A DNA stretch of 12,097 bases, taken from positions 1-12,097 of IMG/VR virus record IMGVR_UViG_3300045988_152913; one strand, written 5' to 3'. This DNA is from a virus. The position numbers were made by a program, and so were the translations under genes. Below, one piece after another: positions 1-12,097 of the stretch. Each line of letters opens with the position of its first letter. Position 1 is the first letter of the stretch. Below the pieces are notes generated by a model. That model was given only the letters and a program-made list of their open reading frames with translations. It had not been told where the DNA came from and ran no database searches.

Positions 1-57
1 AAAGTAATAAGAGGGGGAAAAGTTAGTTCGAACTAACTCGCACTTTATCACGCTAAA
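1..57. repeat. Left inverted terminal repeat (ITR) of a linear protein-primed replicon
   Basis: Bases 1-57 match the reverse complement of 12041-12097 except for the dinucleotide at 29-30 (CG versus GA). The terminus reads 5'-AAAGTAAT, sharing AAAGTA with the phi29 ends. Weaker similarity continues to about position 76. Confidence 0.9.
21..38. repeat. 18-bp perfect palindrome inside the left ITR (AGTTAGTT-CG-AACTAACT)
   Basis: The sequence agttagttcgaactaact is its own reverse complement. Confidence 0.85.
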
Positions 58-76
58 ATGGTAAACCAATAAAGTG
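53..76. repeat. Degenerate three-unit 8-mer array (nTAAAGTG-like) at the inner edge of the left ITR
   Basis: The units are ctaaaatg, gtaaacca and ataaagtg. They sit at the position that mirrors the 7-unit array at the right end, and an inverted unit cactttat lies at 41-48. Confidence 0.45.
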
Positions 77-88
77 TTGAAGTAAGAC

Positions 89-117
89 TTGACAAAAAAT
101 CTCGTTTGTGCTATACT
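89..117 (+). promoter_or_regulatory. Near-consensus sigma-A/sigma-70 promoter for the structural operon
   Basis: TTGACA (89-94), a 17-nt spacer, then TATACT (112-117) with TG at 109-110 giving an extended -10 (TGcTATACT). It lies 22 bp upstream of the first plus-strand gene. Confidence 0.7.
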
Positions 118-139
118 TATATAAAAAGGGGGTGATTAG

Positions 140-322
140 GTGGAAATGTCAAGTATCCTTGAAATTATTTCAAGTGTTGGTTTTCCTATTGCTTGTTGTA
201 TTGCTATGTTTTTACAGCAAAACAAGATAACCGAAAATCACAAAAACGAAATGTCCGAAATGAAGAGCGCTATTGACAATAACACGGTGGCGTTAACAAA
301 ACTTATTGAAAAATTAAAGTAA
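140..322 (+). CDS. Small single-pass membrane protein, YvrJ-family-like; holin candidate
   Basis: The N-terminal hydrophobic segment ILEIISSVGFPIACCIAMFL resembles the YvrJ signature (ISxVGFPI) and is followed by a polar helical tail. The SD GGGGGTGA lies at 128-135. The start could be GTG 140 or ATG 146. Confidence 0.6.
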   Translation: MEMSSILEIISSVGFPIACCIAMFLQQNKITENHKNEMSEMKSAIDNNTVALTKLIEKLK

Positions 323-338
323 AGAAAGGATTTTTATT

Positions 339-1523
339 ATGACACTTGAACAAATAAGCACAATACTTAATACAAGTATTGTACCCGCAATTATGGGAGC
401 GGACTATACAATCAATCCCGACTTATCGAACATCGTTGACTTCGGCACGAAAATATCCGAGATGACCGCCGACCAGTTTAAAACCTACTTCAACGAATTT
501 TGCGCCGCTGTAAGAACGGTTTCCGATACAAGAGAGTACAGCCCCGAAGAATTACCGCTGTATGTTGACAGTGAGGAATACGGCGGTCTTGTCCAGTCTA
601 TAAAATCAGATTTTACTGAAACGAGAAATTCAAATCTCTACTCCCTCGTTGACGGTCAGACTTACAACGATGTAAATAAATACTTTGGTACATCTTTTGA
701 TAACAAAATTTTTGAAAAGGACGTTACATGGGGTATGGCAAAATCTATCCCCAACACTATGTGGAAAAAGGCTTTTTTAAATGCTGAAGGTGTATCACAG
801 CTTGTAGCACTCGTTGAAGTGTGGTATCGAAACACAATCCGCAGAAACAGCTCCGCTATGGAACACAATCTGATAAGCGGTCTTATCACAAAAGGCAAGG
901 ATATAAATCTTGTTACAATGTACAATGATATGCTTGCAACGGGCAAAATTGCACAGTCCGCAAGTACTGGTACTATTGGTGAAAACGCCACTGCGTGGAC
1001 AGAAGGCGAACAGGTCGCAGTGACAAGTGACAACTGCATATACAATAAGTATTTTATGCAGTGGGCGAGTGAAACAATTGCAAATATTATTAAGGTCGCC
1101 CGCTTTGCGAACAAGAAATATAATGACGGCACTGTATCAACATACACAACGGAAAGCGACAGTATTATGATTTATAATACTATGTTTGCGAACAGAATGA
1201 AGGCATTAAACATTGCCGACCCAACAGGCGCAAAAATATATGATACTCCGTTTTGGAATGCACAGACTGATAGTTTGATACCTACAATCAAAAACAGTGC
1301 GCACGTTATCTATACCGATGATGGAGCGGAAACAGGCAACAAAAGTAAGGATTATGTTATTGGTGTTTTATATGACCGCTGGGCTGTCGGCTATACTCTC
1401 ACACCGATTGCTCCCCGTATGGCATACAATGCGGACGGCGATTTTTACACACAGTTTACAGATTTTAACAACCGTTACTGGGTAGACACACGCAACACGG
1501 CAATTGTATTTACGCTTAACTAA
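339..1523 (+). CDS. Major capsid protein (phi29 gp8-like, HK97-fold candidate)
   Basis: It is 394 aa and the first large gene of the structural operon. The segment WKKAFLNAEGVSQLVALVEVWYRNTIRRNSSAMEHNLI resembles phi29 gp8 [38 protein letters not shown]. A strong hairpin follows the gene. Confidence 0.7.
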   Translation: MTLEQISTILNTSIVPAIMGADYTINPDLSNIVDFGTKISEMTADQFKTYFNEFCAAVRTVSDTREYSPEELPLYVDSEEYGGLVQSIKSDFTETRNSNLYSLVDGQTYNDVNKYFGTSFDNKIFEKDVTWGMAKSIPNTMWKKAFLNAEGVSQLVALVEVWYRNTIRRNSSAMEHNLISGLITKGKDINLVTMYNDMLATGKIAQSASTGTIGENATAWTEGEQVAVTSDNCIYNKYFMQWASETIANIIKVARFANKKYNDGTVSTYTTESDSIMIYNTMFANRMKALNIADPTGAKIYDTPFWNAQTDSLIPTIKNSAHVIYTDDGAETGNKSKDYVIGVLYDRWAVGYTLTPIAPRMAYNADGDFYTQFTDFNNRYWVDTRNTAIVFTLN

Positions 1524-1532
1524 CCTCAAAAA

Positions 1533-1565
1533 TATACCCCGTAATATATTACGGGGTATAATATT
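1533..1565 (+). terminator. Perfect 14-bp-stem hairpin after the capsid gene (partial terminator or mRNA stabiliser)
   Basis: tataccccgtaata/tattacggggtata pairs perfectly across 1533-1560 and is followed by the A/T-rich atatt. There is no clean U-tract, so read-through is likely. Confidence 0.4.
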
Positions 1566-1584
1566 ATAAGAAAGGAAGTGTTTT

Positions 1585-2055
1585 ATGAAAGCAACTTTTT
1601 ATAGTTCAACTGCCGAAAAAAATAAACTTGATAAAACAGAATTTTTGACAGGCAAAGCTGTAACAAATATACAGCTAAAAGAAAGCTGTGGAATGCTGAC
1701 CCCTGTTATAATTATGTCGGCGAATGTCACTGGTAAAAATTACGTTCATATACCTTTATTGGCAAGATATTACTTTATAACAAATATAACAAGGCTTGAC
1801 AATGACAGAATAGAAGTATCTTGCAAGGTTGATGTTTTAATGTCATTTAAAGATGATATATTAAAACTTAAAGTGATTGCTACACGGTCAAGTGATAAAT
1901 TTAATTATTATTTGCGTGATAGCGCAATAGCGATACAAGCTAATACGTTTCCGATTGTTCGCAGGCTTTCAAAAGGTCTTTTTCAAAGCAATTTAATCAC
2001 AGAAAATGATTACACATATGCTTTGACAGTAATAAACAAAAAGAAGGTGTTATAA
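1585..2055 (+). CDS. Tail-knob protein, N-terminal-domain-like (phi29 gp9 N-terminus)
   Basis: YYFITNITRLDNDRIEVSCKVDVLMSFKDDI resembles phi29 gp9 [33 protein letters not shown]. The SD is AAAGGAAGTG. The stop TAA overlaps the next ATG (TAATG). Confidence 0.5.
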   Translation: MKATFYSSTAEKNKLDKTEFLTGKAVTNIQLKESCGMLTPVIIMSANVTGKNYVHIPLLARYYFITNITRLDNDRIEVSCKVDVLMSFKDDILKLKVIATRSSDKFNYYLRDSAIAIQANTFPIVRRLSKGLFQSNLITENDYTYALTVINKKKVL

Positions 2056-4100
2056 TGGTAAAATGGAACGATATATTAAACGATGATTATAAAATCAAAA
2101 CTAACAAGGACTACCTTTCCGAATATTTTACTATTGCTGACCGATTTTATAGGAATTTAAGAGCGGCAGGGTTCGTATCCTGCAAAGAAGATTATAGATA
2201 CGGCAGTATATCCGCTTATAATGTTGGTTATTGTTATGCAGTGGACATTGACAAAGATACACTTCCGAGTTGCAAACCGTATGCCGCAGGAATAGATGGT
2301 TTTGGCTTTGAAGCTTTTCCTTTCGGAAAAAGTGACCCGCTTACAGGTTCAGGAAGTTGGAAGTTGTTCGGAAACTTTGTTAATATTTCCAATGCCTTAA
2401 CAAAAGGTGTTAATCATAATTTAGTAATATATTTGCAGTTGGAAAGTATGGCGGATAACGATATGCAGTATAGACAAAAAGCAATTTCTCCGCCCCTAGT
2501 ACCCGCAACAGAAGTAACTCACGATATGGGATTTGGTGGTAGTTACGAAAACACTTTAAACGATGATAAATTTGAAAATTATTATCGTGTTACTGCAATA
2601 ACTTACTATATCAATGATAATGATGGAAATTACAATGAATTAAATCCTAGGGAAATTTATAATGCAGATAGCGGATATTATACAAGCGTTGTTGTCCCTT
2701 TTTATTTGAACGGTTGGAAAGATAGCAGTACGTCCGAGTATGAAACAAAGGTGGCTTGTGTCGGAATATCTTTGGATAATTTGCTAGGAATTTATGCAAG
2801 TATTAAAACAAGCGATTATTATAATTATCGAGAACACGTTAATTACACCAATGGTATTAATGCCGACATATATGGATATGAAAATTTATCCTATTATGAG
2901 AATCCAACAGGGCAGCTATTTGGAAATTTAAATGAGGTTATAGGAAATACAAGATTAAGAAAAACAGTATATTTTACCAAAGAAACATTAACAAAAATAT
3001 TAAATGACATAGGAATACCATACACTTTTAACATAAATGAAGCCCTAAACAATAACACTTCTAATTTTACGAATTATAAACCGAGCGGAAAACCCGAAAA
3101 TCCCATATATCCACCATCGGGCGATGGCGATAATAGCTCAGATGATTTTGAGATTATTACACCTACATACAGCCCGTATGACAGCTACACAACAACATAC
3201 CTTTGCCGCAAAGCGGATATAAATAATTTGTCGAATTATATGTGGAGCGATGATTTTATAAATCAAGTAATCAGACTTTTTGAGAACCCGTCTGAGCTTA
3301 TAACAAACAATATATTTTTTCCGTATTCGCTTACGGAAAATCAAACTTTACCTGAACCCGAACAAATCACAATAGGCAATGTAAATGCTCCGACAAATAC
3401 AACTGGCATACCCTTAACGGCTTTATATAATCGCAGGCGCACAACTGACCCTTACGTTTATACCTCTTACTTTGGGTCATTTTTAGACTATGAGCCTTAC
3501 AGCCACTATCTTTTATATCTGCCTTATATAGGCTTTGTAAAGATAGACGGAAACGATGTTATAAAACACGCTTTACGGGTGGAGTATGTTAGCGAGTTAG
3601 AAACAGGAAATTGCACCGCTTATATTTACAGCGATACCCGATTAGTTGCACAGTATAACGGGGAGCTTGGAACACCTATAGGACTATCAAATACAAATCA
3701 AATACTTAAAAACTTAAAACTAACAGGTGCAACCGTTCAGGTTGCTTCGGGCATTGCGGGTGCAATTGCAAGTAAAGGCGCAGGCGGAACAAGCGCAATA
3801 TCAAGCGGTATTAGTGACTTTATTTCGTCATTTGCGGAACAAACAATTCACGCAGGCGATAAAGTCGGCGGTTTAAATAGTTTGTATTCGCCGCAAGATG
3901 TTTATTTAGTTGTTTTTCATGCAATTCCTGCTGAAGCGACAGGCACAACGGAAATCTTTGGCAAATCAGCAAGCTACGGCGGAACGGTCGCAGATTTTAG
4001 CGGCTTTTTACAGTGTTCTGCTGTTGACGGATACACAAAAGGAACAGACGATGAAAATAATGAAATTTTTGAATTATTGAGAGGTGGCATATATGTTTAA
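2055..4100 (+). CDS. Tail-knob protein, C-terminal part (gp9-like) with a large N-terminal extra module
   Basis: The Gly/Ala/Ser-rich loop ASGIAGAIASKGAGGTSAISSGI and the C-terminal end FLQCSAVDGYTKGTDDENNEIFELLRGGIYV parallel phi29 gp9 (GGGISAGASAAGGSALG ... [32 protein letters not shown]). A Pro-rich linker KPSGKPENPIYPPSGDGD lies mid-protein. Confidence 0.65.
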   Translation: MVKWNDILNDDYKIKTNKDYLSEYFTIADRFYRNLRAAGFVSCKEDYRYGSISAYNVGYCYAVDIDKDTLPSCKPYAAGIDGFGFEAFPFGKSDPLTGSGSWKLFGNFVNISNALTKGVNHNLVIYLQLESMADNDMQYRQKAISPPLVPATEVTHDMGFGGSYENTLNDDKFENYYRVTAITYYINDNDGNYNELNPREIYNADSGYYTSVVVPFYLNGWKDSSTSEYETKVACVGISLDNLLGIYASIKTSDYYNYREHVNYTNGINADIYGYENLSYYENPTGQLFGNLNEVIGNTRLRKTVYFTKETLTKILNDIGIPYTFNINEALNNNTSNFTNYKPSGKPENPIYPPSGDGDNSSDDFEIITPTYSPYDSYTTTYLCRKADINNLSNYMWSDDFINQVIRLFENPSELITNNIFFPYSLTENQTLPEPEQITIGNVNAPTNTTGIPLTALYNRRRTTDPYVYTSYFGSFLDYEPYSHYLLYLPYIGFVKIDGNDVIKHALRVEYVSELETGNCTAYIYSDTRLVAQYNGELGTPIGLSNTNQILKNLKLTGATVQVASGIAGAIASKGAGGTSAISSGISDFISSFAEQTIHAGDKVGGLNSLYSPQDVYLVVFHAIPAEATGTTEIFGKSASYGGTVADFSGFLQCSAVDGYTKGTDDENNEIFELLRGGIYV

Positions 4101-5067
4101 TAATAGCATTTTTGGCGGAACGTATGCAATAGATGATAATATAGATATATCAGTTATGCGTACAAGGCAGTATTTTGACTATTTAATAAAATATTGTTTT
4201 AATCGTTTTAAGTGGGATTTACCCGAAAAAAGCAGAATGCCGTATTTTTTGCCTGAATACCTTTTATCAATATTCGGACACTATGCAATATTTTATTCCA
4301 AAGATATTCCCAATGAAATAGTTTTTGTAACTGGTGGTTTTACGGGTAAAATAAATAGTTGGGGAATGTATACGGGCTATATAGGAATGACTCCGAACGG
4401 TGAAACCTACGAAGGCACAATAGGCGAAGATTGTGTTGTTATCGGTAATAACTCACTTTACAGACCTGATAAACAGATAGTTTGCAGATTTGCACATTTG
4501 TTAAACGAAATAGATAAGTCTTTAGACTTAAATATTTATAATACTCGATTAACAAAGGGTTTTATTGCCGACAATGATAAAGATAAAATGGCAATTGAAA
4601 CAGCATATAAAGCAGTCGGTGACGGAAAGCCGTTTGTCGCTGTCGCTCCTACGCATAGACCTATGACGGACGTACTAGACACTACGCAAGACGGGCTTTA
4701 TACTCCTTTTGATTTTACTACAGTAAAAGATGCTGATAAACTGCAATACTTATCCCGCCTTTATGATGACATAATCGGCAGATTTTTAGCGATGTACGGC
4801 ATTGACACAGGCAACGTTAATAAGGGTTCGCAGATTTTGGAAAATGAAATTTCCCGACTTGCAGAAGCTAGTGCTGTGCCGATAGAGGACGCATACCTCG
4901 CAAGAAAATACGGAATAGAGCAGTATAAAAAAGTTTTTAACCGTGACGATATTAAAATAACACGCTCTCCGCTTTATGGCTGTGATACGGCAATTAATGA
5001 AATCACTGAGGAAAGCAACGAGGGCGGAGAAATCAAAACCGAGGAAGGAGAAAATGAAAATGGCTAA
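4093..5067 (+). CDS. Portal / upper collar connector protein (phi29 gp10-like)
   Basis: YFDYLIKYCFNRFKWDLPE...FLPEYLLSIFGHYAIFY parallels gp10 [23 protein letters not shown]...FLEKSIHQFGYVGFY. VVIGNNSLYRP...FAHLLNEIDKSL parallels VVIYNNDMAFP...FAAELAELKEII. ATG 4093 follows the SD GAGAGGTGG; the ORF track opens at GTG 4084. Confidence 0.85.
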   Translation: MFNNSIFGGTYAIDDNIDISVMRTRQYFDYLIKYCFNRFKWDLPEKSRMPYFLPEYLLSIFGHYAIFYSKDIPNEIVFVTGGFTGKINSWGMYTGYIGMTPNGETYEGTIGEDCVVIGNNSLYRPDKQIVCRFAHLLNEIDKSLDLNIYNTRLTKGFIADNDKDKMAIETAYKAVGDGKPFVAVAPTHRPMTDVLDTTQDGLYTPFDFTTVKDADKLQYLSRLYDDIIGRFLAMYGIDTGNVNKGSQILENEISRLAEASAVPIEDAYLARKYGIEQYKKVFNRDDIKITRSPLYGCDTAINEITEESNEGGEIKTEEGENENG

Positions 5068-5932
5068 CTTGCTTAACTATACAGGCGAAAAAAGCCCCAT
5101 CACTATAGGAGATATGCAGATTTCAGACTCCCTCGGAACAAAACTGCTTGCCACTAGTTTAACTTTCGCAGACGCTTCCGTTTTTGCCAGTGGTAATGAT
5201 TTGTGTATGTTTTTTGGTGATTATACTAAGTCCACCTATGTATATAATCAGGGAAGTATATCACCAAGCAGTGATTTTATAACAACATTAAATAGATATT
5301 GGGATATAAGAAAAGTGGAATATGAAAAAATTAAAAATGCTATTATGGCAGAATATAACCCCATTAATAATTACAGTATGGAAGAAAGACACACAGGAAC
5401 GGACACAACCGAAAGCAAGAACAGCGGAACAGACACAACAACAGACACGCACACAGGAACGGACACACTTGCAAAAACTGGCAATGTTGAAAACGCAAAA
5501 GGCACAACACAGACAAACACGGCAGGCATAACAGCGACAACAACAAATGCGGCAGCGGAAATTACTAGCGTTAATCAAGTATCTGCATATGATAGCAATG
5601 ATTTTACAAATCACGATAAAAACACAACATCGACCCCTGAAACAACGCAGACGGTTGCAAATAGCGGAGCGGATACAATCGCTTACAGCGGTAAAGATAC
5701 AATAACAAACAATTTAACCGATACAACAACATATAACACAACTCAAGTAAGCAGTGTAAAATACGGACACAACACAGACAATACTACTACATACGATACA
5801 CTGTTAACCCGTGTAGGTAACATCGGTGTTACCACTTCGCAACAAATGATAGAAAGCGAATATATTTTGAGATTAAAACATTCGCTTATCGAATTATTCT
5901 TAACCGAATTTATAAGAAATTATTGTTTTTAA
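5054..5932 (+). CDS. Lower collar (gp11-like) protein candidate with a Thr-rich repeat core
   Basis: It lies immediately after the portal, as in phi29. A Thr/Asn-rich repeated middle (HTGTDTT twice) is followed by a conserved-looking C-terminus RVGNIGVTTSQQMIESE. The likely start is ATG 5054 or 5060 after GAGGAAGGAG; the 4976 start in the track lies inside the portal gene. Confidence 0.55.
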   Translation: MKMANLLNYTGEKSPITIGDMQISDSLGTKLLATSLTFADASVFASGNDLCMFFGDYTKSTYVYNQGSISPSSDFITTLNRYWDIRKVEYEKIKNAIMAEYNPINNYSMEERHTGTDTTESKNSGTDTTTDTHTGTDTLAKTGNVENAKGTTQTNTAGITATTTNAAAEITSVNQVSAYDSNDFTNHDKNTTSTPETTQTVANSGADTIAYSGKDTITNNLTDTTTYNTTQVSSVKYGHNTDNTTTYDTLLTRVGNIGVTTSQQMIESEYILRLKHSLIELFLTEFIRNYCF

Positions 5933-5947
5933 GAAAGGAAAATTATT

Positions 5948-6694
5948 ATGTTTAAAAATCATGTTATAGGTGCAAGAGATGAATTTATATCAGCCGACTA
6001 TAAAACGAGAAATCCCGATTACCCTACGCACAACGGAATTGACCTTGTAAGCTCCTCGGGTAAAGATTTATCAATCATTGCCATAGAGGGAGGAACGGTT
6101 GTAACAGCAGTTGACGGAATTGCGGGTCACGATGAATACAACACTTGCGGTAATTTTGTAAAAATCCGTCACGCTGACGGCAAGTTTACTAGGTATCTGC
6201 ATATGCTTAAGGATAGTGTTTGCGTAAAGGTCGGCGAAAAGGTCAAAAAGGGCGCAAAGCTAGGAATGATGGGAAACACTGGGTACAGCTTTGGAAAGCA
6301 CTTGCATTTTGATGTGTCAGACGGAACAGCTTTCGAAGACCCGTTGCCTTATCTTAAGGGCGATAAAAACTTCAATGTTCCACGTGGAACAGATTTTAAA
6401 AAGGGCGAAAAAGTAATGCTTAACAACGGCGCAAAATTTTCAGATGGTAGTACTCCTTTTGATTATGTATATACTACTGTGTATACTATATTAAATATAA
6501 GTAATGACAAAACAGAAGTTTTAATCGGAATTGACAATGCCCCGACAGGCTGGGTATACGCAAAAGACCTCACAAAAATAAATGATACTCCAGACGTTAA
6601 AGTCGGCGATACAATCAAAATCAACGGGAATATATGGGGTGTTGTAATCGGAATTAATGCAAAGGGCGATATAATAAAAGGCGAAAAGTTATGA
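5948..6694 (+). CDS. M23 (LytM-type) metallopeptidase peptidoglycan hydrolase with an SH3-like C-terminal domain
   Basis: The HxxxD motif (HNGIDL) and HxH motif (GKHLHFDV) are in the canonical order. The C-terminal ~100 aa have an SH3b-like pattern (GEKVMLNNGAKF...GWVYAKDL...VGDTIKING). Confidence 0.85.
   Translation: MFKNHVIGARDEFISADYKTRNPDYPTHNGIDLVSSSGKDLSIIAIEGGTVVTAVDGIAGHDEYNTCGNFVKIRHADGKFTRYLHMLKDSVCVKVGEKVKKGAKLGMMGNTGYSFGKHLHFDVSDGTAFEDPLPYLKGDKNFNVPRGTDFKKGEKVMLNNGAKFSDGSTPFDYVYTTVYTILNISNDKTEVLIGIDNAPTGWVYAKDLTKINDTPDVKVGDTIKINGNIWGVVIGINAKGDIIKGEKL
6376..6391. promoter_or_regulatory. Palindrome copy 1: TGTTCCA-CG-TGGAACA (perfect 16-mer), inside the M23 gene
   Basis: The 16-mer tgttccacgtggaaca is its own reverse complement. 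The same arms recur at 7853-7868 and 11016-11033. Confidence 0.4.
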
Positions 6695-7851
6695 CAGATA
6701 AAGAATACAAAGAAGCGATAAAGCTATACAAGTCTTTGCACTGCCCGTCAGACACTTTAAACATAATTGGTGATATTTTGCCGTATGAAAAAGCGTGGAA
6801 TATGATTCTTTCCCCCCGCTCAAGGGGAAAGACCACTAATCTTATTTTATGGGGTATGTGTTTAAATGCGACTTGCGGTACACAAATACAATATATCCGT
6901 CAAAGAGATAGTCAGTTAGTACCTAAACTATGTGGTAAATTATGCGATGTTATAAATATGCCAAAGTACAAATACATTGAAAAAATAACAAATGGCAGAT
7001 ATAATAATGTATGGTATTACGGAAGAAAATGGTATTATCGCCTAATTGATGAAAACGGAGAAGTTATAGAAAAATCCGAAACACCTTTTATGTCTTGCAT
7101 AGCTGTAGACCAAAACCAAAACTTAAAATCGGTGTACAATGCGCCTAACGGAGATTTTATAATCTTTGACGAGTTTTTAACAAAAAATGGATATTTGCCT
7201 GACGAATTTGTACTTTTAAATGACTTACTGAGTACAATAATCCGACAACGTGATACAGCTAGTATATATCTTGTAGGTAACTTAATAGACAAATATAGTA
7301 TATATTTTGACGAATTATACCTAACAGATATTATACAGGAAATAACATGGGGCGAGCACAGAAACGTAAATTGCGGCGGTACTGAGCTACACCTATTTAC
7401 ATTGCCACTTGATATGACAGCAAAGCGGCAGAAAGTAAATAAAAAATATTTTGGTTGGAATAACCAAATGTTAACAAGTATAACGGGCAATAAAGGCTTG
7501 TGGCAAATGAAGCAATATCCGAAACCGCCTAAAGGAGATTTTGAAGTTATTGACAAGGCATATATCTATAAAAACGGAAAGTATTGCGCAAGAGAGATTC
7601 GCAAAGACGAAACGAATCACTTATATATTATGATATATAGTGATACTTACGGATACAATCCTGACAGGCATATATTATATACGTTAAATAGCAAGGTGGG
7701 ATATAATAAAAAAATCCGCTTTGGGTTTGGCTTTACCTATACAGACGATTGCGTAAAGCGTTTAATTTTAGCCAAAAGGATATTTTTTGCAGATAATTCT
7801 TGCGGCGCTTTCCTTGACAGCTATATAAAAGATATTTCAACCTATAAATAA
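6691..7851 (+). CDS. DNA packaging (encapsidation) ATPase, phi29 gp16-like
   Basis: Walker A SPRSRGKTT (phi29 GARGIGKSY). QIQYIRQRDSQL parallels QFIYVRRYKPEL. Walker B plus downstream DFIIFDEFLTKNGYLPDEFVLLNDLLSTIIRQRD parallels IVFDEFIREKDNSNYIPNEVSALLNLMDTVFRNRE. The start overlaps the upstream stop (ATGA). Confidence 0.9.
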   Translation: MTDKEYKEAIKLYKSLHCPSDTLNIIGDILPYEKAWNMILSPRSRGKTTNLILWGMCLNATCGTQIQYIRQRDSQLVPKLCGKLCDVINMPKYKYIEKITNGRYNNVWYYGRKWYYRLIDENGEVIEKSETPFMSCIAVDQNQNLKSVYNAPNGDFIIFDEFLTKNGYLPDEFVLLNDLLSTIIRQRDTASIYLVGNLIDKYSIYFDELYLTDIIQEITWGEHRNVNCGGTELHLFTLPLDMTAKRQKVNKKYFGWNNQMLTSITGNKGLWQMKQYPKPPKGDFEVIDKAYIYKNGKYCAREIRKDETNHLYIMIYSDTYGYNPDRHILYTLNSKVGYNKKIRFGFGFTYTDDCVKRLILAKRIFFADNSCGAFLDSYIKDISTYK

Positions 7852-7852
7852 A

Positions 7853-7868
7853 TGTTCCACGAGGAACA
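7853..7868. promoter_or_regulatory. Palindrome copy 2: TGTTCCA-CG-AGGAACA (one arm mismatch)
   Basis: It starts two bases after the ATPase stop codon and lies just upstream of the bidirectional terminator. Confidence 0.4.
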
Positions 7869-7870
7869 AA

Positions 7871-7905
7871 AGAAGAGCGGTCATTTGCCGCTCTTTTCGT
7901 TTATC
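7871..7905. terminator. Bidirectional rho-independent terminator between the convergent operons
   Basis: The stem AAGAGCGG/CCGCTCTT (7873-7880 / 7888-7895) has a 7-nt loop. It is followed by TTCGTTTATCTTT on the plus strand and by CTTTTGTT on the minus strand. Confidence 0.7.
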
Positions 7906-7954
7906 TTTATTATAATGTATGCGCAGACGGTATATATTATACAAGTCAAAATAA

Positions 7955-9961
7955 CTAACATTTAAGCATTTTCCTTTCGTAAATGCAGTTTAAAAAAGCC
8001 TTTTCAACGGTCATTGTAAACGGAACAGAATATATATAGCAACCGCCTAGAGTGTGCATTTCTTGACCGTTAATAATTGCTGTGCTTTCTCCGTGGTAAG
8101 TGTGCGCATTTTTACCGCTGACAAAAAATGACATTTCGGGCTTAAAATTATCGTAAAGTGCATTCTCCCCGTTTTCCTTTACATAATCTTTAATTGTCTT
8201 CTTCGGCATTCCCGCAATCACTGCTTTTGTTTTATCATCAACTGTATAAATGTATCTTTTCGCCCCCCACGTTTTAAATTTATTATATGTTTCTTCAAGG
8301 TCAAATAATCCCAAATCTTTATATATCTCAAAATCTAACTTTAATTCATTGCAGATTTTTTTATTCAAATTTAATGTCTTTTCGTTATATTCGTTAAATA
8401 TAGTATTGCAACCTTTTAACACTTTGATACTGTCAGTATCACTATATAATGCTTTTTCTTTGCACTTGTATATATTACTTAATATTATATATCTGCAATA
8501 AGCAGTAATATAAATTCCCCAGTAGGGAGAAAGTATTTGATTTTTTATAACCTTTTCGTAAGTATCCCCTTGTTCCTCTATCCATTCCCCATTTTTAAAG
8601 GTAATTTCTTCCAAATTTAAGCGTGAAACACACATTCCATAACACGAATTTAATTTTCCTTTGCTTTCAAAATAATTCTGCATCCATATATCTGTATCTT
8701 CTTTATTTTCTTTTAAATACTTTTTGTTTTTATAAAATTCCGCAACGGAATTAATTAAGTAAAAAGGTAATTTCTTTTTTACTGCTGTTTTCATCCCTTG
8801 TATTTCCATTTTATCCCATTTGTAAAACATTTCGTAAATTTTATAATCAAGCTCCGTAAGCATTACCGTTATTTCCGTTGCAAATGCAAGCCGACCATTT
8901 TCAAACAATGCGTTTTTCATATTCATTATTTTGTGTTTACTTTCTATAACGTGATGTTCTTTAGCGGTAATATTATAAAATGTATATATTGCTATCGTTG
9001 ACACATTCTCGTTTTTTATTCTTTTATCCCACAATTTAATATCTTCCTCTTCATATTCCGTCATTGGGAATTTATACTGTAGCATTATTGACGGATAAGC
9101 ACTTGTTAAATCATAACTATCAATATTCGTCAAAATATCGCCACAGATGGCGGTCTGAGCGTGTGTAAATCCGCCACGAAATAACCACTTCATAGTAAAA
9201 TTATAAGAAGCTACATCTTTCGGATAAAGTTTCGAAACATCTTTTTTTATACAGTATAACCGCTTGCTAGGTATTTGCTCCTTTATATACTGTCTTACAA
9301 TTCCTGTCGATGTAAAAGGTATTCGCTTGTTTTGCCTTGTGTACTTGTTATGTATGTAATCGGCATATTCCGATAATATAACAACATCATTTATACAGTA
9401 TTGTAATTCTTTATCTGTTAATTCTGTTAAATGATTTCGTTCTATATTATAATCAAGGTCGCCGACTAGCTTTTTTGTTTTACAAAAATTATCAGCAAGC
9501 GTTGCAAGCGATACTCCCGATAAAGCCGCAGAATCCCTAAAAATAAAGCCGTTTGTTAGCTGTACTTCTAGCGGTTGATATTTCGCTTTTGCGAATACCT
9601 TTTTTAATAATCCTTTGCATTCAAGGTAAGGAAGTAAGAAAGACATTTCGAAACCCAAATTATGAACGAATATTATAATATTTGCCTTTGAAAACATTCG
9701 AGGAAGTTTTAAAAATTCAAGCAGATTAAAAAAATCTTCCCATGTTCTTCCGATAATAACCGTTCCGTTTATAGAAAATTGCCAAATGTAAATAAAAGCG
9801 GTTTTTGTTTCTGCGTGGTTTGTTGTTTCTACGTCAAAGCCACAACATAAATCATAGCACTTGTAAGCATTTTCACCTCTGCCTATTTGATAAATTTCGG
9901 GCGGTATAATATTTTTGTTTACTATACAATTCCAACCTTTATTATTATCATAGATTCGCAT
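7955..9961 (-). CDS. Family B protein-primed DNA polymerase (phi29 gp2-like)
   Basis: Motifs in order: ExoI FDVETT, ExoII HNLGFE, ExoIII YCINDVVIL, YxGG FRGGFT, motif A DLTSAYPS, motif B KLNSCYG, motif C YSDTDSI, KxY GAKRYIY. This is the phi29 polymerase order. Confidence 0.95.
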   Translation of the reverse strand: MRIYDNNKGWNCIVNKNIIPPEIYQIGRGENAYKCYDLCCGFDVETTNHAETKTAFIYIWQFSINGTVIIGRTWEDFFNLLEFLKLPRMFSKANIIIFVHNLGFEMSFLLPYLECKGLLKKVFAKAKYQPLEVQLTNGFIFRDSAALSGVSLATLADNFCKTKKLVGDLDYNIERNHLTELTDKELQYCINDVVILSEYADYIHNKYTRQNKRIPFTSTGIVRQYIKEQIPSKRLYCIKKDVSKLYPKDVASYNFTMKWLFRGGFTHAQTAICGDILTNIDSYDLTSAYPSIMLQYKFPMTEYEEEDIKLWDKRIKNENVSTIAIYTFYNITAKEHHVIESKHKIMNMKNALFENGRLAFATEITVMLTELDYKIYEMFYKWDKMEIQGMKTAVKKKLPFYLINSVAEFYKNKKYLKENKEDTDIWMQNYFESKGKLNSCYGMCVSRLNLEEITFKNGEWIEEQGDTYEKVIKNQILSPYWGIYITAYCRYIILSNIYKCKEKALYSDTDSIKVLKGCNTIFNEYNEKTLNLNKKICNELKLDFEIYKDLGLFDLEETYNKFKTWGAKRYIYTVDDKTKAVIAGMPKKTIKDYVKENGENALYDNFKPEMSFFVSGKNAHTYHGESTAIINGQEMHTLGGCYIYSVPFTMTVEKAFLNCIYERKMLKC

Positions 9962-10626
9962 TAAAAAGGCAATCCTTTCTTTCCTTGCTTATAATCGGCA
10001 AGTTGTTTCAAAGCGTCTTCACGCTGTGCTTGTTGACGTTTTTCAAATTCTTCGTCCAGTTCTTCTATGTAATTTTTTTCTTCAAGCTCCGCCTGATTTG
10101 CTACCGTGTTTATCTTTTTGACTATATCGTCAAGCTCGGATAATTCTTCTTTTTTCTTTCCTTTTCTTTTCTCAACAAATTCTTCTAAAATTCCACTGTA
10201 GCGGGGGTCATTTTGAACTCTGTACAAAATATCAAGATTAGAGGTAAGATTATTCCACGCTTTCGCCCCCCTGTGTTCTTCTTCGATTTCGGCTTGCGTG
10301 ACATCTTTCAAGGGCTTATTTTCTCTTGCGCTGATTTTCTTTTTATATTCAAATTTTATATCGCCTTTTGTTTTTGTTTTTTGATTTGCAAGGCTCTTTT
10401 TAAGGGCGGTCACCTTTTGCCTGTTTTCTTTTGTGTTTGCTATCGCAAAAGTGCCTTGCGGAGCGGTTTTAGTAATTTTAAAATCATAGTTGATACCCGC
10501 ACTATCAAGTGCTTTCTTATATGCGGCTACCTCGTTACTGTCAAACCCCATATAACCAGCAACCTCCGCAAGTCGCTGATTTATCTTTTTTATGTACTTT
10601 TGCGCTTCTTTTTGTGCGTTTGTCAT
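9961..10626 (-). CDS. Terminal protein candidate (phi29 gp3 position)
   Basis: It lies directly upstream of the polymerase and is translationally coupled to it (TAATG overlap). It is highly charged and Lys-rich. Faint resemblances to phi29 TP are VQNDPRYS versus MRTDPQYY, EELDEEFEK versus ISFEEFDSE, and the C-terminal end YKQGKKGLPF versus YRRGDFDLSLKGF. Confidence 0.55.
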   Translation of the reverse strand: MTNAQKEAQKYIKKINQRLAEVAGYMGFDSNEVAAYKKALDSAGINYDFKITKTAPQGTFAIANTKENRQKVTALKKSLANQKTKTKGDIKFEYKKKISARENKPLKDVTQAEIEEEHRGAKAWNNLTSNLDILYRVQNDPRYSGILEEFVEKRKGKKKEELSELDDIVKKINTVANQAELEEKNYIEELDEEFEKRQQAQREDALKQLADYKQGKKGLPF

Positions 10627-10643
10627 ATAAAATACCTCTTTTT

Positions 10644-10675
10644 AAAAATTAAGGGACGGCGCAAAACCGTCCCTT
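10644..10675 (-). terminator. Minus-strand intrinsic terminator/attenuator between the SSB and terminal-protein genes
   Basis: The 9-bp GC-rich stem AAGGGACGG/CCGTCCCTT (10651-10659 / 10667-10675) is followed on the minus strand by AAUUUUUAAAAA. There is no U-tract on the plus strand. Confidence 0.6.
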
Positions 10676-10688
10676 GATTGAAACAAAA

Positions 10689-11003
10689 TTACTTGATGTA
10701 AAGGGAAAGGAACGTTCTGCCACTCTTGCTTTCTCTGTGTAGTACCTCAACTTCCAGTGTACCTAACTCGTCTATGAGGTCAACGAGCTTGTTTACTGTG
10801 CTTAACACTGTTGCAGACACCGAGCCGTAAACGCCCTCTGTGGTAAAGAGATATGCGACCTCTTTTTCCTCTCCTGTTTCCGTGTCTATCACGGTATCAG
10901 TTGCAACACCTGTAACGGTAAGGTCGGTAGCCTTTTCAAGCGACATCGAGCTTGAAGAAGCGTTGAAAAGGTCTTTTGCTGTGAGATTTGTTGTTTTTGT
11001 CAT
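10689..11003 (-). CDS. Single-stranded DNA-binding protein, phi29 p5-like
   Basis: AYLFTTEGVYGSVSATVLSTVNKLVDLIDELGTLEVEVLHRESKSGRTFLSLYIK parallels phi29 p5 [59 protein letters not shown]. ATG 11003 follows the SD AGGAG with a 7-nt spacer. The track start at 11033 has no SD and lies inside the palindrome. Confidence 0.8.
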   Translation of the reverse strand: MTKTTNLTAKDLFNASSSSMSLEKATDLTVTGVATDTVIDTETGEEKEVAYLFTTEGVYGSVSATVLSTVNKLVDLIDELGTLEVEVLHRESKSGRTFLSLYIK

Positions 11004-11015
11004 AATAAAACTCCT

Positions 11016-11033
11016 ATGTTCCATGTGGAACAT
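11016..11033. promoter_or_regulatory. Palindrome copy 3: ATGTTCCA-TG-TGGAACAT, abutting the SSB ribosome-binding site
   Basis: The 8-bp arms are perfect. On the minus strand the sequence reads ATGTTCCACATGGAACAT followed directly by AGGAG. Confidence 0.45.
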
Positions 11034-11080
11034 TGCTATTTGTCGGATAGCTCCGTATTTATACCCTGTCGGGTTGGGGT

Positions 11081-11103
11081 GCGGCTGTTAAAAGGACAAC
11101 CGC
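11081..11103 (-). other. Strand-biased RNA hairpin downstream of the 65-aa gene
   Basis: The 8-bp stem GCGGUUGU/ACAGCCGC holds on the minus-strand RNA, where one pair is a G-U wobble. On the plus strand that pair is a C-A mismatch. No U-tract follows. Confidence 0.3.
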
Positions 11104-11111
11104 TCAGAACC

Positions 11112-11309
11112 TTAAAAAATATACTCGAATGTTGCGCCTGTTGAGATTTTGAGTATCTTTACTTTTTTAGTATACTCACCGCACTCAAACCTTGCGGCGA
11201 TTTCCATCGCCGAAGAAAAACAGTCCGTAAAAGCGGGGATAACGTTCCCGTTTCGCTTTTCGCACGTTACCAAATATCCGAGGTTTGCGCTTCCTTTTTC
11301 CATTTTCAT
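11112..11309 (-). CDS. Hypothetical early protein (65 aa)
   Basis: The SD AAGGAGGTG lies 6 nt upstream of the ATG, and the gene is tightly packed in the early operon. I recognise no motif. Confidence 0.6.
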   Translation of the reverse strand: MKMEKGSANLGYLVTCEKRNGNVIPAFTDCFSSAMEIAARFECGEYTKKVKILKISTGATFEYIF

Positions 11310-11312
11310 TTG

Positions 11313-11564
11313 TTACACCTCCTTGCATTCGTTTATTCGAGCAATTAATTTTGTTAAGGACGTCACAAAATTTGTTGCGCAAGCACTGCTAAGTGTGACA
11401 TTTGTGCTTGCTTTTTGCAGATACTCAAGGTCTTTTGCCGTGTTCGTGATATGCTTTGTCAACTCTGATATGATGTAATTAACGTTAATCTGTACATTTT
11501 CCATGTCAATATTAACATTTTTCATTGCATTGTCCTGTGCTTCATAAAGTCTGTAGTTTTTCAT
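11313..11564 (-). CDS. Hypothetical early protein (83 aa, predicted helical)
   Basis: The SD GGAAGAGG lies 6 nt upstream of the ATG. The stop codon is embedded in the SD of the next gene. I recognise no motif. Confidence 0.6.
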   Translation of the reverse strand: MKNYRLYEAQDNAMKNVNIDMENVQINVNYIISELTKHITNTAKDLEYLQKASTNVTLSSACATNFVTSLTKLIARINECKEV

Positions 11565-11598
11565 GTTAAACCTCTTCCTGTCATTTTGTTTTGAGGTG

Positions 11599-11687
11599 TT
11601 ACCTCTCGTTTCATTGTCTATATATTACACCTTTTATATGTAATCTGTATGATAGTTTTGTGTTAATTATGTGAAATTTGTTTTACC
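11599..11687. repeat. Copy A of a duplicated ~89-bp promoter/leader module
   Basis: It shares with 11902-11990 the blocks ttacctctc(g)tttcattg(t/a)ctatat, a 28-bp core tgatagttttgtgNNaattatgtgaaat (26/28 identical) and a terminal ttacc. Confidence 0.75.
11622..11677 (-). promoter_or_regulatory. Candidate internal early promoter (copy A)
   Basis: The minus strand carries a -10-like TAATAT (11627-11622) preceded by GGTG. There is no good -35, and an upstream TTTCAC box lies in the conserved core. It sits ahead of the 83-aa gene. Confidence 0.35.
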
Positions 11688-11887
11688 TCCTTTTTAAGTC
11701 GGTCAAGCACAACTTGTCCGTTTACCCCTGTCATTTTCTCAAAATACGAGGATTTTAAAAACCTCGCTACCTCGGAGCGCATATTAGGTTCATTGCGGTA
11801 GTCATTAACCGCTTGATTGATTACGGCAATCCATAGTTGTGTATAACCTCCGTTGGTTTTTATCGGACTTTTCTTAAGTGGTCTAAT
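11663..11887 (-). CDS. Hypothetical first early protein (~74 aa) with a non-canonical start (ATT or CTG)
   Basis: An 87-codon open frame on the minus strand has protein-like sequence (...GGYTQLWIAVINQAVNDYRNEPNMRSEVARFLKSSYFEKMTGVNGQVVLDRLKKEVKQISHN). The strong SD AAAGGAG (11903-11897) is followed by CTG 11896, ATT 11893 and ATT 11887. There is no ATG/GTG/TTG until codon 49, and that ATG has no SD. Confidence 0.45.
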   Translation of the reverse strand: MRPLKKSPIKTNGGYTQLWIAVINQAVNDYRNEPNMRSEVARFLKSSYFEKMTGVNGQVVLDRLKKEVKQISHN

Positions 11888-11901
11888 TTTAATCAGCTCC
11901 T

Positions 11902-11990
11902 TTACCTCTCTTTCATTGACTATATTGTACCAAACCCGTATGAAAACTATTTGATAGTTTTGTGAAAATTATGTGAAATATTAACTTACC
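11902..11990. repeat. Copy B of the duplicated ~89-bp promoter/leader module
   Basis: See copy A. Copy B also contains the inverted repeat AAAACTAT-ttg-ATAGTTTT (11943-11961) and two GTGAAA boxes 10 bp apart (11963-11968 and 11973-11978). Confidence 0.75.
11924..11979 (-). promoter_or_regulatory. Candidate telomere-proximal early promoter (copy B)
   Basis: The minus strand carries an extended -10, TGgTACAAT (11932-11924). There is no recognisable -35, and two TTTCAC boxes lie upstream. It sits ahead of the first early ORF. Confidence 0.4.
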
Positions 11991-12046
11991 ACTTTACCAC
12001 TTTATCACTTTATCACTTTACCACTTTAGCACTTTAGCACTTTAGC
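11984..12046. repeat. Tandem 8-bp repeat array (ACTTTAnC, 7 full units plus one degenerate unit) abutting the right ITR
   Basis: Units across 11991-12046: actttacc, actttatc, actttatc, actttacc, actttagc, actttagc, actttagc. A 7-nt unit acttacc precedes them at 11984-11990. The last unit faces an inverted unit (taaagtg, 12051-12057) inside the ITR. Confidence 0.9.
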
Positions 12047-12097
12047 GTGATAAAGTGCGAGTTAGTTTCAACTAACTTTTCCCCCTCTTATTACTTT
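12041..12097. repeat. Right inverted terminal repeat (ITR)
   Basis: The reverse complement of the last 57 bases equals bases 1-57 with two adjacent mismatches. The window starts and ends exactly at the repeat, which implies a full-length linear genome. Confidence 0.9.
12060..12077. repeat. Palindrome inside the right ITR (AGTTAGTT-TC-AACTAACT)
   Basis: The 8-bp arms are identical to the left copy. Only the central dinucleotide differs, and these two bases are the only mismatches in the ITR core. Confidence 0.85.

Follow-up and report, generated by a model that had tools for sequence, protein, structure and literature searches.

A 12.1-kb linear viral genome bounded by inverted terminal repeats, very probably that of a small phi29-like podophage

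The DNA considered here is IMG/VR virus record IMGVR_UViG_3300045988_152913, a stretch of 12,097 nucleotides (nt) that is referred to throughout as the window. It very probably derives from a small phi29-like podophage whose linear double-stranded DNA genome it contains in full, or with only a few bases missing, and which belongs to a large, mostly uncultured, gut-associated clade with genomes of 10-14 kb. The linear genome is complete or nearly so and has a genuine inverted terminal repeat (ITR) as its boundary; linear genomes with ITRs are a feature of phi29-like phages. In addition, all six proteins of the phi29-group hallmark set of PMC11476376 (p8, p9, p10, p11, p2, and p16) are encoded in it. 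Within this already described group, the window stands for a new lineage, one that diverges deeply but has been well sampled.

Genome ends

The left arm of the ITR occupies positions 1-57 and starts 5'-AAAGTAATAAGAG, the window as a whole beginning with AAAGTAATAAGAGGGGGAAAAGTTAGTTCGAACTAACTCGCACTTTATCACGCTAAA. The right arm, at 12041-12097, is the reverse complement of the left with 2 mismatches, which lie at positions 29-30 (cg vs ga). The arms begin at base 1 and at base 12097, just as an initial annotation, made from the sequence alone, had described for an ITR of about 57 bp; its observation that the window opens with the hexamer of the phi29 terminal repeat (AAAGTA) is likewise correct, matching both the annotation of EU771092 and PMC11476376. 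A weaker likeness of the left end to the right continues to base 83, and a repeat finder stretches the arms to 83 nt at 88%. Beyond base 57, both ends diverge into 8-bp repeats whose copy number is unequal, with 7.4 copies on the right and about four degenerate ones on the left.

Two contigs from other projects, OIEL01001317.1 (L064) and OGWU01008950.1 (L065), terminate exactly at AAAGTAATAAGAGGGGG, which is the terminal base of the window: L065 begins at the first base of the left arm, and L064 terminates at the last base of the right arm. Both were found in a public metagenome collection by means of a degenerate pattern internal to the ITR, from which the terminal 17 nt had been left out. 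In IMG/VR, neither this degenerate pattern nor an exact search with the terminal 26-mer gave a match. Three assemblies (the window, L064, and L065) consequently share one identical end base. Five more close relatives (L003, L004, L060, L062, and L063), whose polymerases are 88-96% identical, end within the ITR region: two at a G-run (bases 13-14), one at base 38, one in the 8-bp array, and one fused to an adaptor. Sequence past either terminus was found in none of the close relatives compared.

Two of these contigs have flaws of their own. L060 (ENA ERZ27285686 k141_58035) is an adaptor-contaminated record in which a Nextera transposase adaptor (…GTCTCGTGGGCTCGGAGATGTGTATAAGAGACAG) is present at both ends, where it joins the ITR some 16 nt short of the real terminus; such a junction is an indirect sign of a physical DNA end close by. 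L064 is mis-assembled: it starts at the equivalent of window position 11902 and runs to the left end, where the right-end 178 bp replaces the left-end 68 bp. This graft shows that assemblers are confused by the ITR rather than that they create it.

An alternative explanation is that the ITR is itself an assembly artefact, either a fold-back chimera or a pair of adaptor-derived ends, and that the true genome is longer or circular. Assemblers do mishandle ends of this kind, as the grafted 178 bp of L064 and the adaptors kept at both ends of L060 illustrate, and window bases 7-13 (ATAAGAG) coincide with 7 nt of the Nextera mosaic end. However, outside the ATAAGAG 7-mer the adaptor matches just 2 of 10 other aligned positions. 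Furthermore, there are 2 internal differences between the arms, which diverge beyond base 57, unlike the product of a fold-back assembly error, and three independent assemblies end at one base. ITRs are also a trait of the clade, present in the cultured phage Phanie as well (171 nt), and the relatives include none longer than 15.3 kb (among the 80 listed of 191) and none with a direct terminal repeat. Thus, an artefact of either kind is highly improbable, and the check for a fold-back origin did not bear it out.

The genuine ITR contains further structure. A palindrome, AGTTAGT-nnnn-ACTAACT, lies at 21-38 and is mirrored at 12060-12077; in relatives, its arms are kept while the central 4 nt vary. 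In a second ITR palindrome, GCACTTTA-n6-TAAAGTGC, relatives again keep the arms and the centre varies. A stable single-strand hairpin was considered for the first palindrome and ruled out, since its folding as single-stranded DNA is weak (z -1.66); consequently, a site for a dimeric protein is likelier than a hairpin. The 8-bp array at 11986-12044, with 7.4 copies of TTACCACT (GTAAAGTG on the other strand; Tandem Repeats Finder score 90), abuts the right ITR core, and degenerate copies of the unit occur at 54-85 at the left end. Copy number differs among relatives. The heptamer TAAAGTG occurs 15 times in the window versus 2.5 expected, 10 of the 15 being within 110 nt of the ends. The ITR palindromes and the 8-bp arrays look like putative protein-binding sites.

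Size class and relatives

The initial annotation had put the window forward as an unusually compact tailed virus and a useful minimal model. At 12.1 kb, the window is only slightly under the 12.7-kb median of 45 ITR-bounded relatives; cultured relatives measure 10.4-12.3 kb, and PMC11476376 (2024) has already described more than 2000 phi29-like database entries, clusters of 11-14 kb, and a split tail knob. The size is therefore ordinary for the group, and the genome cannot be called unusually compact. An isolated tailed phage of 11.6 kb has been reported as the smallest (bioRxiv 10.1101/2025.06.18.659913), so that the known size limit of tailed phages is not lowered by the window. Neither does the window offer a simpler model than phages already cultured, and this part of the proposal has to be given up as well.

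The size class is evident from several searches. Among 2360 polymerase homologs (E <= 1e-20), the best 120 listed are all on contigs of 14.2 kb or less. In 185,579 species genomes that were scanned, 191 relatives were confirmed; the 80 listed all come from contigs no longer than 15.3 kb, none of them chromosome-sized. ITRs are found at both contig ends in 45 of the 103 fetched relatives of at least 10 kb; these 45 have ITRs of 27-353 nt (median 141) and genomes of 10.7-13.5 kb (median 12.7 kb). No direct terminal repeat was seen among the fetched relatives. The cultured relatives (10.4-12.3 kb) are Vibrio K58 g2, Salmonella astrithr, Acinetobacter Phanie, and Amedibacillus AD70P2/P3.

Similarity to deposited phages is low. 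Megablast of the whole window against 50,697 phage records gave no match, and no high protein or nucleotide similarity to a member of Salasmaviridae, Rountreeviridae, Guelinviridae, or Astrithrvirus was seen (megablast; polymerase at most about 33-34%). The best matches among deposited phage genomes have polymerases 28-34% identical, the nearest at about 33%, and capsid proteins 21-24% identical. They are Salmonella astrithr, Astrid, and assan (11.6-11.7 kb), Pectobacterium DU_PP_III (11.5 kb), Acinetobacter Phanie (11.9 kb), Vibrio K58 g2 (10.4 kb), Amedibacillus AD70P2/P3 (12.2-12.3 kb), and human-faecal 'Bacteriophage sp.' genomes of 12-15 kb. Assignment of a host from the bins of metagenome-assembled genomes was tried and rejected: the bins in which relatives occur carry the labels Clostridia, Treponema, Akkermansia, Bacteroides, and Methanobrevibacter, among others, a scatter that points to binning noise.

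Replication, head, and packaging genes

The replication genes lie on the minus strand. A 668-aa family-B DNA polymerase of the protein-primed type is encoded at 7955-9961 (phrog_1907, 2e-64; Pfam DNA_pol_B_2, 1.4e-10, together with an exonuclease domain). Its sole PDB match is the phi29 polymerase (1e-6), in an alignment that runs through the ExoIII motif and polymerase motifs such as YSDTDS; searching for the exact polymerase sequence returned no record. Catalytic columns are invariant in the alignment of the clade's polymerases. In addition, a p5-like single-stranded DNA-binding protein (SSB) is encoded at 10689-11033, with a match to Pfam Phi29_Phage_SSB (1.5e-10) that is over the cutoff (41.8 vs 25 bits). 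Its start is probably at 11003, judged by the length of 104 aa found in relatives. A peculiarity of the polymerase is residue 105, in the ExoII motif HNLGFEMSF, which is Glu where phi29 has Asp66 and which is invariant in 35 of 35 aligned polymerases of the clade. The remaining exonuclease motifs are canonical (DxE, YxxxD).

The head and packaging genes lie on the plus strand. The major capsid protein (gp8-like, 394 aa, 339-1523) matches Pfam Phi29_MCP above the cutoff (E 2.5e-8; 34.1 vs 27 bits), and its tblastn matches in astrithr, Phanie, and K58 g2 are proteins annotated as major head proteins. The portal, or upper collar (gp10-like, 4084-5067), matches Pfam Phage_connector (9e-8; 32.3 bits vs a cutoff of 25.6), phrog_2038 (1e-19), and the GA-1 portal 7PV2 (6.5e-4); its true start is probably the ATG at 4093, which would yield the 324 aa called for this gene in relatives. 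The DNA packaging ATPase (386 aa, 6691-7851) matches phrog_2150 (6e-18), and its best PDB match is phi29 gp16 (5HD9, 3.5e-4; 7JQQ, 1.6e-3). A small-terminase-like open reading frame (ORF) is absent from the ORFs of the window. Each of these proteins had been named in the initial annotation, as a protein-primed polymerase, a p5-like SSB, a capsid protein, a gp10-like portal, and a gp16-like ATPase, and each assignment holds.

The lower collar and both tail knob ORFs had no direct match, and for these, family alignments were built from the ORFs of fetched relatives. The resulting profile identifies the lower collar, or tail tube (gp11-like, 290 aa, 5060-5932, plus strand), by its match to phi29 gp11 (6QZ9) over residues 28-292 (E 1e-14). 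The longest ORF here starts at 4976 and would give 318 aa, whereas the gene calls of relatives give 290 aa with a start at ATG 5060 and an 8-nt overlap with the portal gene.

The tail knob

The tail knob is split into two plus-strand genes. The proximal piece (156 aa, 1585-2055) corresponds to the gp9 N-terminal domain; its profile matches the phage C1 knob 4EO2 over residues 52-164 (E 6e-4) and Phanie gp9, annotated as 'putative tail knob protein' (probability 99.1%, E 5e-19). The distal piece (681 aa, 2055-4100) matches Phanie gp10, its residues 375-681 aligning with residues 594-852 of that protein (probability 99.3%, E 5e-20), and the C-terminal region of Phanie gp10 has been equated with the C-terminal part of phi29 p9 (PMC11476376). 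The knob is a single ORF (442-857 aa) in 9 relatives, including the cultured Amedibacillus phage AD70P2, and an adjacent separate pair in 76 loci. Taken together, these results uphold the earlier identification of gp9-like knob pieces. The direct link of the knob to phi29 gp9 is weak: the 681-aa protein gives a weak collinear match to phi29 gp9 residues 491-583 and no PDB sequence match, and its AlphaFold model (predicted local distance difference test, pLDDT, 59.5) has phi29 gp9 5FB5 as its top PDB match in Foldseek at E 0.21, which is not taken as proof. In the 681-aa protein, the C-terminal ~300 aa are conserved and gp9-C-like, and the N-terminal and middle beta-rich part is variable; this variable part is probably a host-recognition module. 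In three relatives (L140, L070, and L134), the large knob protein carries the knob N-domain at its C-terminal end, an order opposite to that in phi29. This could represent a genuine domain permutation, or else a reversed gene order with read-through.

It could be supposed that the phage is helper-dependent, or satellite-like, as has been reported for Phanie, in which case the virions of the window phage would be infectious only after docking on the tail of another phage. Such a lifestyle would explain the lack of a gp12-type appendage gene, and a tail-fibre or appendage family was not detected among the window proteins (Pfam, PHROGs). The split knob architecture is that of Phanie, with strong profile matches for both pieces, and PMC11476376 raises the satellite possibility for Phanie-like genomes. 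However, the split knob is an adjacent gene pair in 76 loci of the clade, and the Salmonella Astrid/astrithr phages are described as non-satellite (bioRxiv 10.1101/2025.06.18.659913). Furthermore, the large variable N-terminal region of the 681-aa distal piece could bind the host itself, Phanie gp10 aligning at the C-terminus only, and the lower collar is full-length (290 aa), whereas it is shortened to about 185 aa in the satellites of Gram-negative hosts. Helper dependence is, given these points, distinctly improbable.

A candidate terminal protein

Directly upstream of the polymerase gene, at 9961-10626 on the minus strand, lies the gene for a 221-aa protein with an isoelectric point of 9.2, the stop codon of which overlaps the polymerase start codon. 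An ORF of 162-295 aa occupies this slot in 120 of 146 loci (gene 3 in phi29), and the 221-aa family is located only there. In 30 remote homologs, taken from 1.84 billion representative proteins, only Asn16 (N16) and Tyr135 (Y135) are invariant, with an F/Y residue conserved near the C-terminus; the family as a whole comprises more than 110 distinct clusters at 90% identity. Given its position, size, charge, and invariant Tyr, the 221-aa protein is likely to be the terminal protein, and Tyr135 is a reasonable candidate for the priming residue. Neither it nor the 30 remote homologs match Pfam or PHROGs, and a PDB profile search with the 221-aa protein gave no match. A separate family of 79 ORFs in the same slot, which includes those of Phanie and AD70P2, is unrelated to it in sequence.

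Another possibility is that the terminal protein is not the 221-aa product, either because another small early protein primes replication or because the 221-aa protein has a different replication role, such as that of a DNA-binding organiser. Homology to known terminal proteins is not seen by HMM (hidden Markov model), profile-profile, or fold searches, and the weak, non-significant fold matches obtained were to MarR-type DNA binders. However, the gene has a strictly conserved place, overlapping the polymerase gene, that parallels phi29 gene 3 and gene 2, its product falls within the 162-295-aa range of the slot, and the family never occurs elsewhere in these genomes. The Tyr is one of only two invariant residues in the family. 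Moreover, the other early ORFs encode just 65-83 aa and are conserved in close relatives only. Such an alternative is therefore unlikely. Thus, of the earlier proposal of a terminal-protein candidate, the fit in position, size, and invariant Tyr stands, and similarity in sequence or fold to known terminal proteins was not found.

Weighing the evidence and a proposed mechanism

Several results weigh against the interpretation of the window as a whole phi29-like genome. With respect to the ends, the first 12 nt are present in only three assemblies, and the ends rest on assembled contigs, so that a few terminal bases may have been lost. With respect to the terminal protein, comparison of the 221-aa protein with phi29 p3, Phanie gp2, and AD70P2 gp13 by hhalign revealed no similarity; iterated HMM searches and cluster-versus-cluster hhalign over the 120 upstream-of-polymerase ORFs produced no link to other families; and its AlphaFold model is poor (pLDDT 65.6), with no significant match to a terminal-protein fold in Foldseek. 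With respect to packaging, the ATPase scores 24.7 bits against Pfam Podovirus_Gp16, 0.3 under the cutoff of 25, and a prohead RNA was not found with Rfam at E up to 10, the only matches being chance-level ones to unrelated families. Given that no prohead RNA was found and that there is almost no non-coding room, packaging may differ from that of phi29. Prohead RNA has been reported only in phi29 and related Bacillus phages (PMC11476376).

If the assignment as a phi29-like genome is correct, its replication would be expected to proceed by analogy with the established model for phi29, which is reviewed in PMC11476376 and PMC4974454. In this scheme, the 221-aa protein would form a heterodimer with the polymerase, and the heterodimer would recognise the ITR ends. 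The polymerase would then join deoxyadenosine monophosphate to a hydroxyl residue of the 221-aa protein, the best candidate being Tyr135, opposite an internal T of the 3'-TTTCAT end, after which the complex would slide back along the TTT run and so regain the terminal base. Each strand would be copied continuously by processive strand displacement, with SSB coating the displaced strand. Finally, DNA capped with terminal protein would be pumped through the portal by the gp16-like ATPase, and the cell would be lysed by the M23 peptidase and the small membrane protein described below.

A more far-reaching hypothesis can be framed from these results, although it is tentative and, as a whole, rather unlikely to be correct in every part. 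In this model, the 221-aa protein founds a terminal-protein family without detectable relation to phi29 p3 or to the commoner Phanie/AD70P2 upstream-of-polymerase family; it would prime via Y135, versus a serine in phi29; gp16-type packaging would operate without prohead RNA; and the terminal protein would have been swapped between otherwise homologous 12-kb replication/packaging modules.

Genome layout and remaining genes

The initial annotation had counted about 14 genes in 12,097 bp, and 14 are found. They take up 93.5% of the 12,097 nt; the non-coding 6.5% is mostly ITR and promoters, and the window contains no tRNA genes. Eight genes on the plus strand (140-7851) converge with six on the minus strand (7955-11887), such that a late operon runs rightward from the left end and an early replication operon runs leftward from the right end. 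Between the convergent operons, at 7871-7897, lies a hairpin that is terminator-like on both strands and appears to be a bidirectional terminator; GC skew switches sign at the same positions.

A likely late promoter of the sigma-70-like type is present on the plus strand at 89-117, with TTGACA, a 17-nt spacing, TATACT, and a TG preceding the -10. It is the best promoter-like site in the window (11 of 12 positions), identified by consensus match only. A putative early promoter region at the right end (11919-11979, minus strand) contains tggTACAAT and tgTAATAT as -10-like boxes, with a promoter-like match at 11946-11919, again from consensus only. The sequence upstream in this region has a second copy at 11637-11677 (a direct repeat, 85% identical), which precedes the gene for an 83-aa protein. 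The top terminator-like site in the window is a strong hairpin (10 pairs, 6 of them G-C) followed by a T-run at 10651-10675 on the minus strand, in the gap between the SSB gene and that of the terminal-protein candidate, and a hairpin with 12 pairs lies at 1533-1560, directly past the capsid gene. These two hairpins within operons may help to set protein ratios, acting either as partial terminators or as elements of RNA stability. A palindrome, AATGTTCCACGTGGAACA(TT), is present three times, at 6373-6391 in the M23 peptidase gene, at 7851-7868 at the end of the ATPase gene, and at 11015-11035 at the start of the SSB ORF.

Two plus-strand genes are candidates for a role in lysis. The gene at 5948-6694 encodes an M23 metallopeptidase of 248 aa (Pfam Peptidase_M23, 3e-21; PHROG endolysin and peptidase families) with a C-terminal domain to which no family is assigned. 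The protein could serve as the endolysin or, like the C-terminal domain of gp13, as a wall hydrolase associated with the tail; more distant relatives have Glyco_hydro_25 in place of M23. The gene at 140-322 encodes a 60-aa protein with one transmembrane helix that has the same position in 34 loci and matches Pfam YvrJ below the cutoff (E 0.017). This small membrane protein is a candidate holin, a function suggested by these features.

The remaining early genes, all on the minus strand, are small. Those encoding 65 aa (11112-11309) and 83 aa (11313-11564) have no family match and are kept in 5 and 3 close relatives, respectively. A third, of about 74 aa (11663-11887), lacks ATG, GTG, or TTG at its head, and its likely start is an ATT located 9 nt past AAAGGAG. 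In this region (11663-11899), the open frame begins upstream of the first ATG, and relatives with 77-83% DNA identity conserve the protein sequence of this stretch ahead of the ATG. Their substitutions favour the third codon position (e.g. 13/7/33), and the codon at the ATT start specifies Ile in every relative. A close relative of 13,122 bp (L062, Logan SRR19487447_1924) has, within its locus 180-2060, roughly 1 kb of additional small early ORFs (61-145 aa) that separate the SSB gene from the right end, which suggests that genome size in this lineage varies mainly via the early accessory region.

Implications

For an abundant gut lineage of mini phi29-like phages, the window serves as a clean reference genome from end to end, with termini corroborated by independent assemblies. 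The two-gene knob is the commonest arrangement among the fetched relatives (76 adjacent pairs vs 9 fused ORFs). The split knob has been proposed to have arisen in phages of Gram-negative hosts, which have a short collar (PMC11476376); the window pairs a split knob with a full-length lower collar. In addition, the terminal-protein slot is occupied by at least two unrelated sequence families within one clade, and a recognisable prohead RNA was not found for this family with Rfam.

Comparison with known systems

Phage phi29 of Bacillus (Salasmaviridae, 19.3 kb) shares with the window the terminal AAAGTA, a PolB of the protein-primed type, the gene of which is directly preceded by that of the presumed primer protein, and a p5-type SSB. 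The late gene order (capsid, tail knob, portal, lower collar, wall hydrolase, ATPase) is also the same, as is a bidirectional terminator after the ATPase gene (gene 16). However, the window genome is 7 kb smaller, its ITR is 57 nt versus 6 nt in phi29, its genes form two operons versus three gene blocks, and its knob is in two genes. Homologs of the scaffold (gp7), head fibre (gp8.5), appendage (gp12), p4, and p6 were not detected in the window, nor was a prohead RNA found there with Rfam. Furthermore, the terminal-protein candidate is unrelated in sequence to that of phi29, and the polymerases align in motifs only (E 1e-6).

Astrithrvirus and its allies (astrithr/Astrid, DU_PP_III, Phanie, along with K58 g2; 10.4-11.9 kb) belong to the same size class and likewise have ITRs (171 nt in Phanie) and a two-gene tail knob. 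Identity with the window is nevertheless very low (polymerase about 33%, capsid 21-24%), with no nucleotide similarity. The order of the genes and their distribution over the strands also differ, Phanie having all its main genes on one strand with the replication genes first; in these phages, the lower collar is about 185 aa versus 290 aa, the lysin is an amidase or CHAP protein versus M23, and the upstream-of-polymerase protein is of another sequence family.

AD70P2/AD70P3 (Guelinviridae, 12.2-12.3 kb) and the gut 'Bacteriophage sp.' genomes of 12-15 kb are again of the same size class, with polymerases 28-34% and capsids about 23% identical to those of the window. They have a gut or sewage origin in common with it, and their lower collar fits the same profile. 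AD70P2 differs in having a single-chain tail knob of 442 aa, an upstream-of-polymerase protein of the other family, and all genes but one on one strand. The closest counterparts are uncultured relatives (for example, IMGVR_UViG_3300039361_000114, OIEL01001317.1, and ENA/Logan contigs), whose polymerases are 88-96% identical to that of the window. They share its 14-gene layout, ITR core, and 8-bp arrays, and differ from it in the number of 8-bp repeats and in the small early genes.

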